Shown: positions 58,098 to 64,000 of the stretch, piece after piece
Numbering within the stretch: the first letter of the stretch is position 1
Layout: every line of letters begins with the position of its first letter
Origin: Candidatus Latescibacterota bacterium
Lineage (GTDB): Bacteria; Latescibacterota; UBA2968; GCA-2709665
Length of the DNA stretch: 64,000 bases
Assembly: GCA_965219995.1 (NCBI GenBank)
Contig: CBDCOX010000002.1
Location: forward strand, 192,001 to 256,000
Reading direction: 5' to 3'
Translations under genes and position numbers: made by a program
The notes under the pieces: model-generated
Seen by the model: only the letters and a program-made list of their open reading frames with translations
Told to the model about the DNA's origin: nothing
Databases searched by the model: none

Positions 58098-58832
58098 GTG
58101 GCACCCAGAGAAACCGAGAAGATGTGGGCCGCTCTGGCGCCGTTCTACGACGTGATGTATCAGTGGAAGGATTACCGGGCCGAGTCGGAGCAAGTTCATC
58201 GGCTGATCCAGGCAAGGCGCGTGTCATCCGGCCGCTCCCTGCTGGACGTCGCGTGCGGGACCGGAGAACACACCCGGTTCTTGCGGGAACACTATGATGT
58301 TACCGGGCTCGATTTGAACCGGGAAATGTTGAAGGTGGCGCGAAACAAGAACCCGGGTATCCCGTTGCGCTGCGGCGACATGACCTCCTTCGACCTGAAG
58401 CGCCGCTTCGACGCCGTCGTCTGCCTGTTCAGTTCGATCGCCTACGTACGGACGTACCGGAACCTGAGGCGGTCGATCGCATGCTTTGAAAAACACCTGA
58501 AACCGGGCGGCGTCCTTGTGATCGAGCCCTTCTTCACGACCGGGACGTTTCTTCCGGGTTCGATCCACGGCGGCACCATGGAAGGAGAGGGCGTCAGAAT
58601 CTCCAGGCACAGCGTGAGCAGACGCCGCGGAAACCTGGCCGTTCTCGATTTCCATTTTCTCCTGTCCACAAAAAAGGGCGTACGATATTTCCACGACACC
58701 CACGAACTGGCCCTCTTCGACCCGTCGCGGTTCCTTGAAATCCTTTCGGACGCCGGGCTCCGCGCCCGGTATTGCGAGGATGGATTGACGCCGGGTCGAG
58801 GGCTGTACGTGTCGTTGAAAGCACTCCCGTAA
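58098..58832 (+). CDS. Class I SAM-dependent methyltransferase (TylM1/DesVI-like)
   Basis: YD..Y..KDY, LLDVACGTG, GDM, CLFSSIAY, HLKPGG..VIEP. Confidence 0.88.
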   Translation: MAPRETEKMWAALAPFYDVMYQWKDYRAESEQVHRLIQARRVSSGRSLLDVACGTGEHTRFLREHYDVTGLDLNREMLKVARNKNPGIPLRCGDMTSFDLKRRFDAVVCLFSSIAYVRTYRNLRRSIACFEKHLKPGGVLVIEPFFTTGTFLPGSIHGGTMEGEGVRISRHSVSRRRGNLAVLDFHFLLSTKKGVRYFHDTHELALFDPSRFLEILSDAGLRARYCEDGLTPGRGLYVSLKALP

Positions 58833-58892: not shown

Positions 58893-58920
58893 TTGACATC
58901 ATTCGGCCCTGCCGTATTAT
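58893..58920 (+). promoter_or_regulatory. Putative sigma70 promoter of the methylamine locus
   Basis: TTGACA-16 nt-TATTAT. Confidence 0.55.
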
Positions 58921-59018: not shown

Positions 59019-60389
59019 ATGGATACACCCGGAAATGACGTTTCCGGAAACGGCCGGACCGGCCGGAACCCGCAGGTTCTGGGCAGGAATTTCATGTTTC
59101 CGCCCCAGGTGATCGACGACATCCACATCAAGGCCAATCTGGGTCGGTACCGCATGCGCGGCATGGCGCTCTTCAAGCAGATTCCATCGTGGGACGACCT
59201 GACGTTTCTTCCCGGAACGCTCACGAGGTTCGTCATCGAGGGATACCGCGAGAAATGCGAGACGCGGACGGTGATCGGACCACGGGCCGAACGGCCGCTC
59301 GAGCTGGATATTCCCATATATATTACGGGCATGAGCTTCGGCGCGTTGTCCTACGAGGCGAAGGTGGCGCTGGCAAGAGGTGCCACCATGGCGGGTACCG
59401 CGACCTGTTCGGGAGAAGGCGGCATGCTGCCCGACGAGCGCCGGTATTCCGAGAAGTGGCTCTACCAGTGCATCCAGTCCCGCTACGGGTTCAACCCGCA
59501 CCACATGCGTCTCGCCGACGGCGTGGAGTTCTTTATCGGACAGGGATGCAAGGTGGGCCTCGGCGGACATCTGATGGGCCAGAAGGTGACGGACCAGGTG
59601 GCCGAAATGCGTTCGCTGCCCGCGGGGATCGACCAGCGGTCGCCGGCGAGGCACCCGGACTGGCTCGGCCCCGATGACCTTGCCCTGAAGATCGAAGAGA
59701 TCCGCGAGGCGACCGACTGGCAGTTGCCCATTCAATTGAAACTCGGCGCGGCCCGGGTCTACGACGACGTGCGGATGGCGGCGAAGACGGGGCCCGACAG
59801 CATCTATATGGACGGGATGGAGGGCTCGACCGGGGCGGGGCCCCACCTTGCCACCGAGGAGACGGGCGTGCCGGGGATCGCGGCCATACGGCAGGCCAGA
59901 AAGGCGCTGGATGACGTGGGCAAGACCGGGGAGATCACGCTCGTATACGCGGGCGGGATTCGCAACGGAGCCGACGTTGCCAAGGCGCTTGCGCTCGGCG
60001 CCGACGTGGTGGCCATCGGCACGGCGGCGATGGTGGCGCTGAATTGCAACAAGGATATCCCCGAGGCGGACTACGAGGGCACGGTAGGCGTACCAGCGGG
60101 GCAATGCTACCACTGCCATACAGGACTCTGTCCCGTGGGCGTGGCCACCCAGGATCCGGTATTGCGCAGCCGGCTGGACCCGGATGAGGCGGCCGAGCGG
60201 GTGTATAACTTCCTGCATACGCTTGCGATCGAATGCCAGATGTTCGCCAGGGCCTGCGGCAAGACCGATGTCCATTCCCTGGAGCCGGAGGATCTCGCCG
60301 CGCTCACCATGGAAGCCTCCGCCATGGCGGAGGTCCCCCTGGCCGGCACCCGATATACCGTCGGGCATCCCGAAATGAACAGGTATTGA
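59019..60389 (+). CDS. FMN-binding glutamate synthase family protein (N-methylglutamate synthase subunit C / GlxD-like)
   Basis: GMSFGALS, GEGG, GQGCKVGLGGHLMGQKV, RHPDWLGPDDL, GGIRNGAD..KALALGAD, CYHCHTGLCPVGVATQ. Confidence 0.88.
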   Translation: MDTPGNDVSGNGRTGRNPQVLGRNFMFPPQVIDDIHIKANLGRYRMRGMALFKQIPSWDDLTFLPGTLTRFVIEGYREKCETRTVIGPRAERPLELDIPIYITGMSFGALSYEAKVALARGATMAGTATCSGEGGMLPDERRYSEKWLYQCIQSRYGFNPHHMRLADGVEFFIGQGCKVGLGGHLMGQKVTDQVAEMRSLPAGIDQRSPARHPDWLGPDDLALKIEEIREATDWQLPIQLKLGAARVYDDVRMAAKTGPDSIYMDGMEGSTGAGPHLATEETGVPGIAAIRQARKALDDVGKTGEITLVYAGGIRNGADVAKALALGADVVAIGTAAMVALNCNKDIPEADYEGTVGVPAGQCYHCHTGLCPVGVATQDPVLRSRLDPDEAAERVYNFLHTLAIECQMFARACGKTDVHSLEPEDLAALTMEASAMAEVPLAGTRYTVGHPEMNRY

Positions 60390-60419
60390 ACGGCGGAAAG
60401 ACAGGAACAGGAGACGCCG

Positions 60420-60857
60420 ATGGACGAAGCCAAAGACGTGAACTACTACCTGAAATCCACGGGGCTGGACTCGGACCGGGAGAAGGAAATCGGACAGCAC
60501 ATCGGATACCGGTACGATGTGAACCTGCCGCCCCACTACGGGCTTCTGACGCCGTTCCTGGAGCGGTACATCGAGGTGATGGGGTGGAGGGACCTGAACT
60601 GGCTGGAAGACGTACATATGGGATACGAAGACGGAAAGCCGGCAGTATTCGACCGGAACATCAATGGCTGGGTGCTGGTTCCCGAAGATATGCCCCTGCC
60701 CGACAACCAGCAGGAACGTGACATGATTGCGCGGGAGTTGCTCGTCAAGTTTCAGATGTCCGCAAAACATCCGATGATGGAACTTGGAGATGCCTACGGC
60801 CTGAAGCTGGAAGCCGAAGACGGCGAGCATGGAGCAGTCTCAAACCCGGCAACCTGA
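60420..60857 (+). CDS. Hypothetical protein (145 aa)
   Basis: AGGAG RBS, acidic/aromatic globular sequence, operonic position. Confidence 0.8.
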   Translation: MDEAKDVNYYLKSTGLDSDREKEIGQHIGYRYDVNLPPHYGLLTPFLERYIEVMGWRDLNWLEDVHMGYEDGKPAVFDRNINGWVLVPEDMPLPDNQQERDMIARELLVKFQMSAKHPMMELGDAYGLKLEAEDGEHGAVSNPAT

Positions 60858-60873
60858 AAACCCGGGAGGCGCA

Positions 60874-62268
60874 ATGAGCAATACGAAGATGTGGGGCCCG
60901 GAGGCGTTCTGGGGTCTGGACTACGACTGGGATCCCCAATGGGTATTGACGCCCGGCCAAAAGGCGCTCCAGGAGAGACTGATCGACCTCTGCCGGACAA
61001 CGCTGCGGGACAACGCCGTAGAGAGCGATCGCAACCTCGTGTTTCCACGGGAAAACTTCGAGGCGCTGGCTTCGCTGGGCCTGCTTGGACTGAACGTGCC
61101 CCGGGAATGGGGAGGCCTGGGAGAAGACCACACGTGTACGGCGATGGTGGTGGAGACGATCGCGCGTTACGGGTGCGCCAGTACCGCGATGTGTTATACC
61201 ATGCACGTCGGGGCCGTGGCCGCCGCCATGTTCCGGGCGCACGACAACGCGACGCTTCAGGCCCTCATGAAGCGCCTCGACAGCGACGTGCTGGTGGGCA
61301 CGTTATCCTATTCGGACCCGGAGACGGGCTCCCATTTCTGGTACCCCATTTCTTCCGGGGCCGAACGGGTGGAAGGCGGCTGGAAGGTGCGAAAAAAGGC
61401 GTCGTGGACGACGTCCGCGGGTTTCGCCGACTGGTACATCGTGCAGACGACGAGCCCCGATTTCGCCGGTGATTATTCGAATCTTTCCTGCTTCCTCGTC
61501 ATGGCGGACGAGGTGAAAGCGGAACCGTCGCTGTGGGACGGCCTGGGTCTGCGCGGGAACCAGTCCGGCACATTGGAGGTCGACAACGTCACGATGCCGG
61601 AAAGCAGGCTGGTGGGGCCGGTGGGCGACGGGGCGAATTCGAATGACGAGACGGTGGATCCGTTCTTCCTGTTATGTTCATCGGCCTGCTGGAACGGGAT
61701 TTCTCTGGGGATGATCGACATCGCCAGGCGGCACACCACGGCGCGGCGACACGCCGACGTGGGGATGCGGGTGGCGGACTATCCGACAATCCAGGACTAC
61801 GTGGGCGAGGCCGTGATCGATACCAACACCTCCCGGTCCTTTGTGTACATGATGGCCCGTGCGATGGACGACGTCACGAATCAATGCGACTGGTCCATCC
61901 ACCGGGACCTCTCCTGCATGCCAAGGGCGGACGTGCTGCACTGGATGTGGCAGGTAAAGTTCACCGCGGCGAAGAACGTGGCAAACGTCTCCGACAAGAT
62001 GCTTCATGCCTGCGGCGGGACGGGGTACAAACCCGATCTGGGGATTGAACGGTACCTGCGCGACGGCAAGGCCGGCTGGGTGATGGGCCCCACGAACGAG
62101 GTCCTCCGCCAGTTTGTAGGGAAGAGCGTACTGTTGGGATTCGACTCGCTGGATTACTGGAACCAGTCGGTGAACGAGCGCCTGTTGAGGAACGAACTCA
62201 AGAAGATGGACGGCGAGACGAAGAAGGAACTCGCGCGTCAGCTTCTGGCTGAAACCGAAGACGGGTGA
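60874..62268 (+). CDS. Acyl-CoA dehydrogenase-fold flavoprotein
   Basis: FPRENF, VPREWGGLG, SDPETGS, K.SWTTS, GLRGNQSG, GGTGY, ERYLRDGKA. GGAGG RBS before ATG 60874. Confidence 0.88.
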   Translation: MSNTKMWGPEAFWGLDYDWDPQWVLTPGQKALQERLIDLCRTTLRDNAVESDRNLVFPRENFEALASLGLLGLNVPREWGGLGEDHTCTAMVVETIARYGCASTAMCYTMHVGAVAAAMFRAHDNATLQALMKRLDSDVLVGTLSYSDPETGSHFWYPISSGAERVEGGWKVRKKASWTTSAGFADWYIVQTTSPDFAGDYSNLSCFLVMADEVKAEPSLWDGLGLRGNQSGTLEVDNVTMPESRLVGPVGDGANSNDETVDPFFLLCSSACWNGISLGMIDIARRHTTARRHADVGMRVADYPTIQDYVGEAVIDTNTSRSFVYMMARAMDDVTNQCDWSIHRDLSCMPRADVLHWMWQVKFTAAKNVANVSDKMLHACGGTGYKPDLGIERYLRDGKAGWVMGPTNEVLRQFVGKSVLLGFDSLDYWNQSVNERLLRNELKKMDGETKKELARQLLAETEDG

Positions 62269-64000
62269 TGCCTGCAGATGTCCAAATGACGGGGACGGGG
62301 TTGCTGAGGTGGATGCCGGGCAGGGAGCGCTATCGGGTGCCGGGCGGGGGGGCGATCGCCCTTGTGCTGTCGCCTGGCGACCGGCTGGCGGTTGTGGACG
62401 TGGAGGGGCGCCAGCGCTGCGAACTGGGTGTGTTCGGCCCGGATGGCAATGCCGATCCGTCCAGGCTGGGCGTCCGGGCCGATGGCCCGATGGAGGGTTT
62501 CACGTCCGCGCTCAGGCGGGGCGACGAAAGCGCCCAGGCGGCCGACGCGGCGCTTCGGCGGCGCGGCGTTGACCTTGCCCTGGCCACAGCGGTGCAGGTT
62601 TTCGGCGGAGAAACGGAAGCCGGCGCCGAAGCGTGCTTCGACGCCGCGGACGACGCCGTTTGCCTGATTGCTGCGCCGGGCGGGCCGATGAGGGTGGATG
62701 CCCAGAACCCTCCCACGGACCTCGATGTCGTGGTCAGGCGCTCGCGCGTTGCGGCGCCGGAACGCCCCCCGCTGCCTTCGCCTCTTGGTGACGTGCGCCT
62801 GGACCTGGAGGTGGAGAAGGCGTCGGCGATCGCTTACGAGGTAAAGGCCGGAGAGTTCATCCAGGTGATCGACGCCGCCGGCAGGCAGTGTTCCGATTTT
62901 CTGGCCTTCGACGCCAGGCAGTTGCAGCGGGGCATCGAGCGGGGGCTGGACGCGACCACGACGCGGACGCTCATGGGCACGGCCTATCCCGGCCCGGGAC
63001 TATTCTCGAGATTCTACGACCAGGATATGCAGCCGCTGGTCGAAGTCGTTCGGGATACGGTAGGCCGGCACGATACGTTTGCGCTTGCGTGCACCGCGAA
63101 ATATTACGAGGATATGGGTTACCCGGGCCACGTCAACTGTACGGACAACTTCAACGCGGCACTGGACCCGTATACGATTCAGTCCCGCCGCGGCTGGCCC
63201 GCGGTGAATTTTTTCTACAATACGAGAATAGACCTTAATAACGTCCTCTTCATGGATGAACCATGGTCTCGTCCGGGTGATTACGTGCTGCTGAAAGCCC
63301 TGACGGACCTGGTCTGCCTGTCGTCCGCGTGCCCGGACGATATCGATCCGGCCAACGGCTGGGAGCCAACGGAGATCCAGGTCCGCGTCTACCCGGAACG
63401 GTACCGGTTTTCCAGAGGAATTGCGCACCGGATGACGGCCGACGCCGAACCGAAGTTGACGAGGGAGACGGCCTTTCACCAGCGAACCTCGGCCCTGACT
63501 CGACATTTCGAGGAATACCGCGGTTTCTGGCTGCCGTCAGCCTACACGGGGACCGGCGCCGTCGAGGAATATTTCGCATGCCGCGAGGCCGCGGCGGTGA
63601 TGGACCTGTCCGCGCTTCGCAAGTTCGAGGTACTGGGCCCGGACGCCGAGGCATTGTTACAGCACACGATTACACGAGACGTTCGCAGGCTTTCGCCCGG
63701 GCAGGTGACGTATTCCGCCATGTGTTACGAAACCGGCGGCATGATGGACGACGGCACCCTGTTCCGGTTGGGCCCCGAGAATTTCCGTTGGATCTGCGGC
63801 GACGAATACGGCGGCGCGTGGCTGCGCGAACAGGCCGGTCGCCTTGGAATGCGGGCATGGGTCAGAAATTCGACCGATCAGCTCCACAATCTTGCCGTTC
63901 AGGGCCCCCGAAGCCGGGATATTCTGCGTGGGGTCATCTGGACGCCTCCGTCCCGCCCGTCCCTGGCCGAATTGGGCTGGTTCAAATTCACGGTGGGTCG
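62268..64000 (+). CDS. tdm: Trimethylamine N-oxide demethylase (DUF1989 plus GcvT-like), partial, runs off the window
   Basis: Absent from the ORF track. ATG overlaps the upstream TGA. Reads RERYRVPGGG..VDVEGRQRCEL, GRQCSDF, GRHDTFALACTAKYYEDMGYPGHVNCTDNFN, SSACPDDIDPANGW, then GcvT motifs DLSALRKFEV and GGMMDDGT. Confidence 0.88.
   Translation, partial: MPADVQMTGTGLLRWMPGRERYRVPGGGAIALVLSPGDRLAVVDVEGRQRCELGVFGPDGNADPSRLGVRADGPMEGFTSALRRGDESAQAADAALRRRGVDLALATAVQVFGGETEAGAEACFDAADDAVCLIAAPGGPMRVDAQNPPTDLDVVVRRSRVAAPERPPLPSPLGDVRLDLEVEKASAIAYEVKAGEFIQVIDAAGRQCSDFLAFDARQLQRGIERGLDATTTRTLMGTAYPGPGLFSRFYDQDMQPLVEVVRDTVGRHDTFALACTAKYYEDMGYPGHVNCTDNFNAALDPYTIQSRRGWPAVNFFYNTRIDLNNVLFMDEPWSRPGDYVLLKALTDLVCLSSACPDDIDPANGWEPTEIQVRVYPERYRFSRGIAHRMTADAEPKLTRETAFHQRTSALTRHFEEYRGFWLPSAYTGTGAVEEYFACREAAAVMDLSALRKFEVLGPDAEALLQHTITRDVRRLSPGQVTYSAMCYETGGMMDDGTLFRLGPENFRWICGDEYGGAWLREQAGRLGMRAWVRNSTDQLHNLAVQGPRSRDILRGVIWTPPSRPSLAELGWFKFTVG

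Follow-up and report, generated by a model that had tools for sequence, protein, structure and literature searches.

Much of the organic nitrogen in seas and soils is present as methylated amines, from which climate-active gases are formed, and gene surveys score their turnover by the genes tmm, tdm, dmmDABC and gmaS. Operons of gmaS-mgsABC and of dmmDABC are described for R. pomeroyi in the part of PMC13390433 that deals with them, and glxBCD and glnT are described for SAR11 in a section of PMC3160333. Passages of PMC5520151 and PMC3870248 portray many abundant bacteria, SAR11 included, as being without dmmDABC, and speak of dimethylamine (DMA) as a 'bottleneck' or of its route as 'in question'; the absence of dmmDABC from SAR11 stands in the former, and the wording 'in question' for SAR11's DMA metabolism in the latter. 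Here, we analyzed a 64,000-nucleotide (nt) stretch of a Candidatus Latescibacterota genome (the window hereafter; G000:C2:192001-256000, in a genome of 5.44 Mb and two contigs that is 98.6% complete), in which four tightly packed open reading frames (ORFs) on the + strand fill the DNA from position 59019 to the window end. They encode a glutamate-synthase-like protein (GlxD'), a protein of 145 amino acids (aa), a flavoprotein of the acyl-CoA dehydrogenase (ACAD) fold, and Tdm, the demethylase of trimethylamine N-oxide (TMAO). The layout that the first-pass annotation had read from this DNA, with four genes behind a promoter and the ACAD stop overlapping the tdm start as TGATG (62266-62270), was confirmed, the promoter being a sigma-70-like consensus match.

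Past the window end, the operon continues on the + strand with a PF01613 flavin reductase, an Amt-family channel, a formate-tetrahydrofolate ligase (fhs) and gmaS, and measures about 12 kb from the promoter-like site to gmaS; the presence of the reductase there changes the reading of the ACAD gene. The full-length Tdm of 778 aa (L002 4266-6602, where L002 coordinates are window coordinates minus 57999 and were used for reading past the window end) exceeds the NF053776 cut-off of 1100 with 1240 bits, its window-encoded portion by itself reaches 878 bits, and the domain order is PF09347 (DUF1989), PF01571 (GCV_T) and PF08669 (GCV_T_C); judged by these profile matches, the last gene of the window is a genuine tdm. 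The operon's GmaS, a glutamine synthetase (GS)-like protein of 444 aa, obtained 596 bits on TIGR03105 (cut-off 469.6) and matches the solved structures 7cql with 444 bits and 9qur ('glutamate--methylamine ligase') with 382 bits.

The first-pass annotation had remarked that tmm and dmmABC were missing from the window, and this holds genome-wide: no match to PF00743 (flavin-containing monooxygenases, FMOs) or NF058570 (Tmm) and none to PF11927 (DmmC) was found in the 98.6%-complete host genome, and Oxidored_FMN gave one weak partial match only, so that no candidate for a trimethylamine (TMA) or DMA dehydrogenase was found either. The PF11927 model does find DmmC elsewhere, in 6 of 50 and 11 of 37 genomes, inside methylamine loci. 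The genome search that the annotation had called for thus returned gmaS and mgdABCD, and neither Tmm nor DmmC. We propose that the operon serves methylated-amine breakdown and that its two unexplained genes belong to two different modules, with the ACAD-fold protein and the reductase replacing Tmm and the set around the 145-aa gene replacing DmmDABC, a reading that we favour tentatively and place a little short of an even chance. Both undescribed enzyme sets may stand in for known steps of trimethylamine degradation, as two candidate non-orthologous replacements with predicted functions in one operon, each with conserved partnerships and a complementary distribution.

The 145-aa gene was surveyed in 80 genome loci from records labelled Latescibacterota, Gemmatimonadota, Alphaproteobacteria and Gammaproteobacteria, and the counts of genes beyond GlxD' refer to those loci whose upstream sequence was long enough. 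In 75 of the 80, the 145-aa gene is preceded by GlxD' at a distance of less than 1 kb, with a median gap of 48 nt, and the other five have less than 400 nt of upstream sequence; the adjoining GlxD' of these loci is 79-96% identical to that of the window, and in other phyla the identity is 81-96%. Further upstream follow the GXGXG protein GlxC' (64/69 loci), the class-II amidotransferase GlxB' (59/64), a GS-like protein of 488 aa (GS488; 54/60) and a DAO-family oxidase of 446 aa (28/58), the order of the conserved set being DAO-like oxidase, GS488, GlxB', GlxC', GlxD' and 145-aa protein. The ACAD gene was detected in the flanks of only four of the 80 loci, all from the window's family. The partner of the 145-aa gene is the upstream GlxD', not the downstream ACAD gene.

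The family of the 145-aa protein is very large, with 7997 relatives among 8000 scored candidates, the best 120 at 62-89% identity, and those that have a name in the sources are called 'hypothetical' only. A profile search of 1.84 billion representatives gave 299 matches at 50% clustering, most of them, to judge from length and matched range, being pieces of this one family; none stood out as a second family in this library, which carries no names. No Pfam or NCBIfam family matched the protein, its best sequence match in the PDB had an E-value of 0.017, no usable match was obtained in the ESM Atlas, and no match in the plasmid collection. Its AlphaFold model is weak (mean predicted local distance difference test, pLDDT, of 61), with a best VIA-align Z of 2.5, and Foldseek with this model returned nothing from the PDB at an E-value of 0.001 or better. 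A complex prediction of GlxD' with the 145-aa protein scored 0.00, which is neither support for nor evidence against binding. In addition, 26 longer proteins include the 145-aa sequence. Among the GlxD'/145-aa fusions of about 600 aa, the GlxD' part of P0243, P0245 and P0257 breaks off early and is continued by sequence that does not resemble GlxD', and these were read as frameshifted gene calls, while P0247 reads through in frame from GlxD' to the 145-aa part, one of the four junctions inspected; others are joined to unrelated domains, and the longer proteins were not counted as Rosetta-stone evidence. Long open frames in G430 and G024 were rejected as out-of-frame artefacts of high-GC DNA.

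The first gene of the operon had been taken for an mgsC-like gene, and the glutamate-synthase FMN domain bears this out; however, it is not the canonical MgsC, which belongs to a separate mgsABC-mgdABCD locus of the same genome. The window GlxD' is 59% identical to the genome's own mgsC product and, on this comparison, is an MgsC paralogue. Likewise, GS488 obtained 309 bits on TIGR03105, under the cut-off, and is about 30% identical to true GmaS. GS488-glxB'-glxC' lies directly after the canonical run (C2:1,455,095-1,466,996 on the minus strand for the whole), so that the second set is split in this genome, its glxD' and 145-aa genes having been relocated to the operon of tdm.

The distribution of the 145-aa gene was analyzed in 401 evenly drawn alphaproteobacterial genomes, of which 37 hold Tdm and 39 the 145-aa gene. 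The gene was present in 27 of the 37 Tdm-positive and 12 of the 364 Tdm-negative genomes (odds ratio 79). A strong DmmC match, defined as PF11927 at an E-value of 1e-40 or better inside a methylamine locus, was obtained in eight of the 37 Tdm-positive genomes; of the 37, one holds both genes, 26 the 145-aa gene alone, seven DmmC alone and three neither (Fisher p 8.5e-5, related genomes counted). With three weak partial PF11927 matches added, the counts become 3, 24, 8 and 2 (p 1.6e-4). This complementarity is the pattern expected of a substitute for the dimethylamine monooxygenase. The three weak matches (E-values of 1e-14 to 1e-16, model positions about 73-267) come from G075, G334 and G429, genomes of about 1.4 Mb, and may represent another member of the DUF3445/HODM family rather than DmmC.

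For the ACAD-fold protein, the scores of PF02771, PF02770 and PF00441 each exceed the respective cut-off. Identity is 75-95% for the 120 relatives listed; they bear generic names only, and those to which a source gives a name come from Alpha- and Gammaproteobacteria, Acidobacteria, Udaeobacter and Latescibacteria. All 17 NCBIfam models listed for the protein remain far under their cut-offs, the best being Rv1679/FadE16 (NF049984; 218 bits against 600), and weaker matches of 50-69 bits, against cut-offs of 430-850, lead to the oxygenases SfnB, DszC, HsaA and HPA-hydroxylase. In a profile alignment, the I-Y-E-G of the solved ACADs 3pfd and 2dvl is aligned to a V-M-G-P that is invariant in 18 of 18 members. 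We take the Glu of the Y-E-G motif, which is of the medium-/short-chain acyl-CoA dehydrogenase (MCAD/SCAD) type, to be the catalytic base of ACADs; according to the alignment, the protein has lost the dehydrogenase's catalytic Glu at the MCAD/SCAD-type position and carries an invariant Gly instead. The family also has a conserved N-terminal extension of 25 residues. With a model of mean pLDDT 61, Foldseek matched ACADs, DszC, XiaF and 5z8t ('flavin-containing monooxygenase'), and with so weak a model it cannot separate dehydrogenases from monooxygenases.

The partners of the ACAD gene were examined in 80 metagenome loci that were found with it. Of these, 44 carry a PF01613 reductase (38 of them within 1.5 kb), 38 carry Tdm, 11 carry the 145-aa gene and none carries Tmm. 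Eighteen loci are flanked by 3 kb or more on each side; 13 of these have the reductase, 15 have Tdm, 16 have at least one of the two and 12 have both. In the window's genus, all ten loci share the order ACAD-tdm-reductase-amt. In Virgifigura deserti, tdm, tmm and a peptidase gene are followed by an adjacent ACAD and reductase pair on the other strand, 3 kb from tdm-tmm. An ACAD fold without the catalytic base, together with a dedicated flavin reductase, is the signature of ACAD-fold two-component flavin monooxygenases. That both genes take part in methylated-amine metabolism, as the first-pass annotation had suggested, is thus borne out by their partners, the glxD' set for one and the reductase and/or tdm for the other. 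Its suggestion that something undescribed lies here also agrees with our survey of open-access papers and bioRxiv, in which no description of an ACAD-fold TMA/DMA oxygenase or of the 145-aa family was found; both families are very conserved and abundant, yet bear only generic or 'hypothetical' names. As a separate observation, metagenome locus L159 (8914-13498) carries an ACAD homologue whose neighbours are a dioxygenase of the PhyH family and a copper amine oxidase, with a 46%-identical Tdm-like gene and an Amt gene downstream, and may be a variant amine-oxidation cluster.

The ACAD gene and Tmm are largely alternatives among Tdm-positive genomes, Tmm being searched with the V. deserti protein (861 bits on NF058570, cut-off 675). 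In the alphaproteobacterial sample, one genome holds both, eight ACAD alone, 19 Tmm alone and nine neither (Fisher p 0.0055). A second set was drawn from the 80 genomes of the 145-aa survey and consists of 50 of them, with preference given mainly to longer contigs; it includes 38 Tdm-positive genomes, for which the same counts are 5, 7, 24 and 2 (p 0.0017); with the ACAD taken at 65% identity or more, it occurs in six of nine genomes without Tmm and two of 29 with it. The union of 71 genomes gives 5, 14, 41 and 11 (p 1.2e-4). V. deserti (L084), which carries both modules, also has a second Tmm-like gene (G002:C23:24370-25761), 63% identical to the first, and hence up to three candidate TMA oxygenases when its ACAD/reductase pair is included.

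From gene content, partnerships, conservation, co-occurrence and the loss of the base at the MCAD/SCAD-type position, we infer both substrates and all of the following chemistry. Most economically, the ACAD-fold protein and the reductase would make TMAO from TMA in place of Tmm, and the 145-aa module would most likely take the DMA released by Tdm into the N-methylglutamate route in place of DmmDABC. The PF01613 reductase would reduce free flavin with NAD(P)H, after which the ACAD-fold protein would bind the reduced flavin and O2, form a flavin C4a-hydroperoxide and pass one oxygen to the nitrogen lone pair of TMA, yielding TMAO. Tdm would then split TMAO into DMA and a C1 unit on tetrahydrofolate, which fhs would link to formate; up to this third step, the scheme would follow the established chemistry of the enzyme classes. 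In the fourth step, DMA would be glutamylated by GS488, GlxB'C'D' and the 145-aa protein would then move the amine onto the 2-position of either glutamate or 2-oxoglutarate, and the DAO-like oxidase would strip one methyl group, a possible route being gamma-glutamyl-dimethylamide to N,N-dimethylglutamate to N-methylglutamate. The 145-aa protein itself might be a small fourth component, acting as a subunit, an assembly factor or a regulatory factor. Finally, the canonical MgdABCD would complete the route, GmaS and MgsABC would handle monomethylamine, and a complete route from TMA to glutamate would then run without either textbook monooxygenase.

Several observations weigh against this proposal. 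Both distribution patterns are statistically fragile once shared ancestry is counted, as related genomes enter the co-occurrence tests as separate cases. The Tdm tree offers seven independent ACAD contrasts, in which Tmm changes in the opposite direction in about three, in the same direction in none and shows no difference in about four (p 0.25), and only four for the 145-aa gene and DmmC, about two of them opposite and none the same (p 0.5), so that the latter pattern cannot reach significance. The distribution check suggested by the first-pass annotation found the 145-aa gene complementary to DmmC and the ACAD gene complementary to Tmm, with independent contrasts that go the expected way and are too few for significance. 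Five of the 19 ACAD-positive genomes also have Tmm, and V. deserti (at the same locus as tmm) and G046 hold Tmm together with a close ACAD orthologue, while nine of the 37 Tdm-positive genomes have neither. The 145-aa gene also occurs in the 12 Tdm-negative genomes, and one genome has it along with DmmC. Two of the 18 well-flanked ACAD loci are without both tdm and reductase, and several less well-flanked ones lie among a nonribosomal peptide synthetase-like gene, a chitinase, ABC transporters and a RES toxin. In the host genome, the set is split, with GS488-glxB'-glxC' 1.2 Mb from glxD' and the 145-aa gene. Neither protein gave a good structure model, as stated above, and no precedent for a secondary amine passing through a GS-like or glutamate-synthase-like enzyme was found in the literature.

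Among the alternatives, the one that survives best holds that GS488-GlxB'C'D' and the 145-aa protein form a second N-methylglutamate isoform for monomethylamine or another primary amine, for instance with another affinity or nitrogen regulation, that the 145-aa protein is a regulatory or stabilising subunit, and that the DmmC pattern reflects shared ancestry. It would account for the same domain set as GmaS/MgsABC, for the 12 Tdm-negative carriers and for the scarcity of independent DmmC contrasts. It also fits Ca. Pelagibacter ubique, where, in the portion of PMC3870248 concerned, a sox-glnT-...-gltB2 run resembles the set and the sox protein rises strongly under nitrogen limitation. However, a streamlined genome of 1.4 Mb (locus GC 36%) holds both full sets side by side, and the keeping of two sets in such a genome argues for two functions; canonical GmaS was found above the cut-off in 23 of the 27 Tdm-positive alphaproteobacterial genomes that carry the 145-aa gene, the odds ratio given above links the set strongly to Tdm, and the monomethylamine route needs neither the extra DAO-like oxidase nor the 145-aa gene. 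We consider such an isoform unlikely, though it deserves to be taken seriously.

A second alternative would make the ACAD-fold protein and its reductase a DMA monooxygenase or N-hydroxylase in place of DmmABC, with TMAO being imported directly. The ACAD gene does adjoin tdm, the product of which is DMA, the host is without DmmC, and so are eight of the nine ACAD-positive genomes of the alphaproteobacterial sample. Nevertheless, ACAD and DmmC showed no relation in that sample (one of nine ACAD-positive against seven of 28 ACAD-negative genomes, p 0.65), the anticorrelation of ACAD with Tmm would be left unexplained, and every ACAD-positive genome of the sample has the 145-aa module, the one that shows the DmmC-complementary pattern. 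The operon also carries an Amt-type channel and no ABC-type TMAO transporter. This assignment appears improbable to us.

A third alternative, more improbable still, would see in the ACAD-fold protein a normal dehydrogenase of acyl-CoA or acyl-ACP, or else an oxygenase of an unrelated substrate, that stands beside tdm by chance or for a side reaction. The source names ('acyl-CoA dehydrogenase family' or AidB-like), the acyl-CoA dehydrogenases among its top PDB sequence matches and the loci in unrelated contexts would agree with it, but the catalytic Glu at the MCAD/SCAD-type position is absent from all 18 aligned members, every NCBIfam equivalog scores far under its cut-off, and in several phyla the gene is repeatedly met next to tdm and a flavin reductase. 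The view of the first-pass annotation, in which the 145-aa protein may act jointly with the ACAD-like enzyme in a single two-component step of N-methyl oxidation, draws on their adjacency and probable co-transcription in the window, on the same arrangement in L085, L086 and L132 of its family and on the presence of the 145-aa gene in all nine ACAD-positive genomes of the alphaproteobacterial sample, but it has been largely refuted by gene distribution and is hardly credible, as the two genes meet in only 4/80 and 11/80 loci in the two surveys (in one family, in the former), 37 of 50 carriers of the 145-aa gene and 18 of 27 in the alphaproteobacterial sample are without the ACAD gene, and the 145-aa gene tracks glxD' while the ACAD gene has a recurring partner of its own, the flavin reductase.

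The features of the locus and of the related genes elsewhere in the genome are collected in Table 1.

Table 1. Coordinates of the operon features and of related genes in the host genome (window coordinates unless a contig or L002 is named).
Feature	Position	Strand	Description
Sigma-70-like site (candidate promoter)	58893-58920	+	TTGACA-16-TATTAT, 11/12 hexamer positions, about 100 nt before the first gene
GlxD'	59019-60389	+	456 aa; PF01645 Glu_synthase FMN domain, E 8e-91, 305 bits
145-aa gene	60420-60857	+	Unnamed, extremely conserved family; last gene of the GS488-GlxB'C'D' set
ACAD-fold flavoprotein	60874-62268	+	464 aa; three ACAD Pfam domains; proposed oxygenase component
tdm (TMAO demethylase)	62268-64000	+	First 578 of 778 codons; about 600 nt more past the window end
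Flavin reductase	L002 6721-7209	Same as tdm	162 aa; PF01613; nearest to HpaC, HsaB and StyB types
Canonical mgsA-mgsB-mgsC-soxB-soxD-soxA-soxG (mgdABCD) run	C2:1,458,429-1,466,996	minus	
DAO-like oxidase, alone	C2:911,917-913,257		

The promoter-like site is the best of five found in 14.5 kb (a mean of 3.2 in shuffles) and, as a consensus match, is a candidate promoter. The ORF junctions look like those of an operon. An AGGAG is located 7 nt 5' of the ATG of the 145-aa gene. The ACAD ORF is open from 60829 (60829-62268, 479 aa) with an internal ATG at 60874 that is preceded by a GGGAGG at 6 nt; the gene more likely starts at this internal ATG, which was taken as the start because most close homologues are of about 464 aa, and it would therefore not overlap the 145-aa gene. 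The tdm ORF is open from 62265 onwards and runs off the window. A scan of 14 kb of the operon with Rfam found no match at an E-value of 0.1 or better. Directly 5' of the promoter-like site, a SAM-dependent methyltransferase of 244 aa (58098-58832, + strand) is kept in the same position in L003, L004, L005 and L085 at 75-78% identity; its best NCBIfam models are the daptide methyltransferase and the glycine/sarcosine N-methyltransferase, both far under their cut-offs, and the related locus L006 has a GS488-glxB'-glxC' run in its place.

In four metatranscriptome runs from marine or coral samples, contigs with 90-99% likeness span the greater part of the operon as it occurs in relatives and bridge the glxD'/145-aa and ACAD/tdm junctions; these contigs may include DNA and cannot show a transcript, and their cover over the middle of the ACAD gene is thin or missing and thus uninformative. 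Some 1.2-1.7 kb beyond the window, the flavin reductase gene and amt are separated by a 476-nt stretch (L002 7199-7674, 52% GC) built of a dispersed repeat of about 100 nt with 173 blastn matches across the genome. Relatives are without it: in G499, of the same genus, only about 40 nt separate the reductase from amt, and in two of the runs the RNA-library contigs pass over L002 7198-7674. It looks like a small repeat element inserted within the operon. After gmaS follows, on the same strand, an Nramp-family metal transporter of 447 aa (L002 12600-13943; 105 bits, cut-off 50). Tdm is reported to need metal ions, and this transporter may be relevant to that need.

Of the three nearest records, two bear the label Candidatus Latescibacterota and one Gemmatimonadota, and they are grouped in the window's genus or family. 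Tdm was found in 18 of 168 genomes of the window's phylum. Besides the host genome, these comprise 16 of the 21 further members of its family (among them 13 of the 14 in its genus) and a single genome from a second family; within the phylum, Tdm is therefore a speciality of the family.

In a wider form of the proposal, the 145-aa gene would mark a widespread undescribed DMA pathway in Tdm-carrying bacteria that lack DmmDABC, probably including SAR11-like streamlined genomes, alongside the ACAD oxygenase replacing Tmm; we regard this wider form as possible but rather doubtful. The part of PMC3870248 on strain HTCC1062 places SAR11_1304 (sox), 1305 (glnT), 1308 (gltB2) and 1310 (amt) beside 1313-1316 (glxBCD-glnT), and from these gene names and their order, rather than from a sequence comparison, we infer that SAR11_1304-1309 might be the 145-aa module. 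If the module does handle DMA, the question of SAR11-type DMA metabolism becomes directly testable, and marker-gene surveys would have missed a DMA route in bacteria lacking Dmm. If the ACAD-fold protein and the reductase do make TMAO, estimates of TMA oxidisers that are based on tmm omit a group of lineages, including the window's Latescibacterota-/Gemmatimonadota-labelled family.

Both modules can be compared with described systems. The ACAD/reductase pair shares with Tmm (NF058570) the proposed conversion of TMA to TMAO, the adjacency to tdm and a largely either-or occurrence among Tdm-positive genomes; however, the folds are unrelated, Tmm being a single-component NADPH/FAD FMO, whereas here an ACAD-fold protein goes with a separate PF01613 reductase. 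The protein would thus work like Tmm without being a member of its family, and its own genome has no NF058570 match. With the two-component monooxygenases DszC/DszD, HsaA/HsaB, p-hydroxyphenylacetate hydroxylase and SfnB, it has in common the ACAD fold, the lost catalytic base and a nearby HpaC/HsaB-type reductase gene, though the similarity to them is weak, while the window's ACAD family is 70-95% identical across phyla; Rv1679/FadE16 is the best-scoring named family, yet its score is that of a non-member. The ACAD-fold class also contains amine N-oxygenases, namely the nitrososynthases and isobutylamine N-hydroxylase. The 145-aa module, for its part, would carry out the same step as DmmDABC, of which DmmC carries PF11927, in removing the DMA made by Tdm, and is distributed in a complementary manner to DmmC, but there is no homology between them, and an ATP-dependent glutamylation and transfer is proposed in the place of a haem-dependent monooxygenase. 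It can also be set beside the N-methylglutamate pathway of GmaS, MgsABC (GlnT/GlxBCD) and MgdABCD, with which it shares the domain families (GS-like, class-II amidotransferase, GXGXG and FMN domain) and the neighbourhoods; nevertheless, the set described here is paralogous, with a GlxD' that is 52-59% identical to MgsC, has an extra DAO-like oxidase and the 145-aa gene, and coexists with the canonical set in the same genomes.

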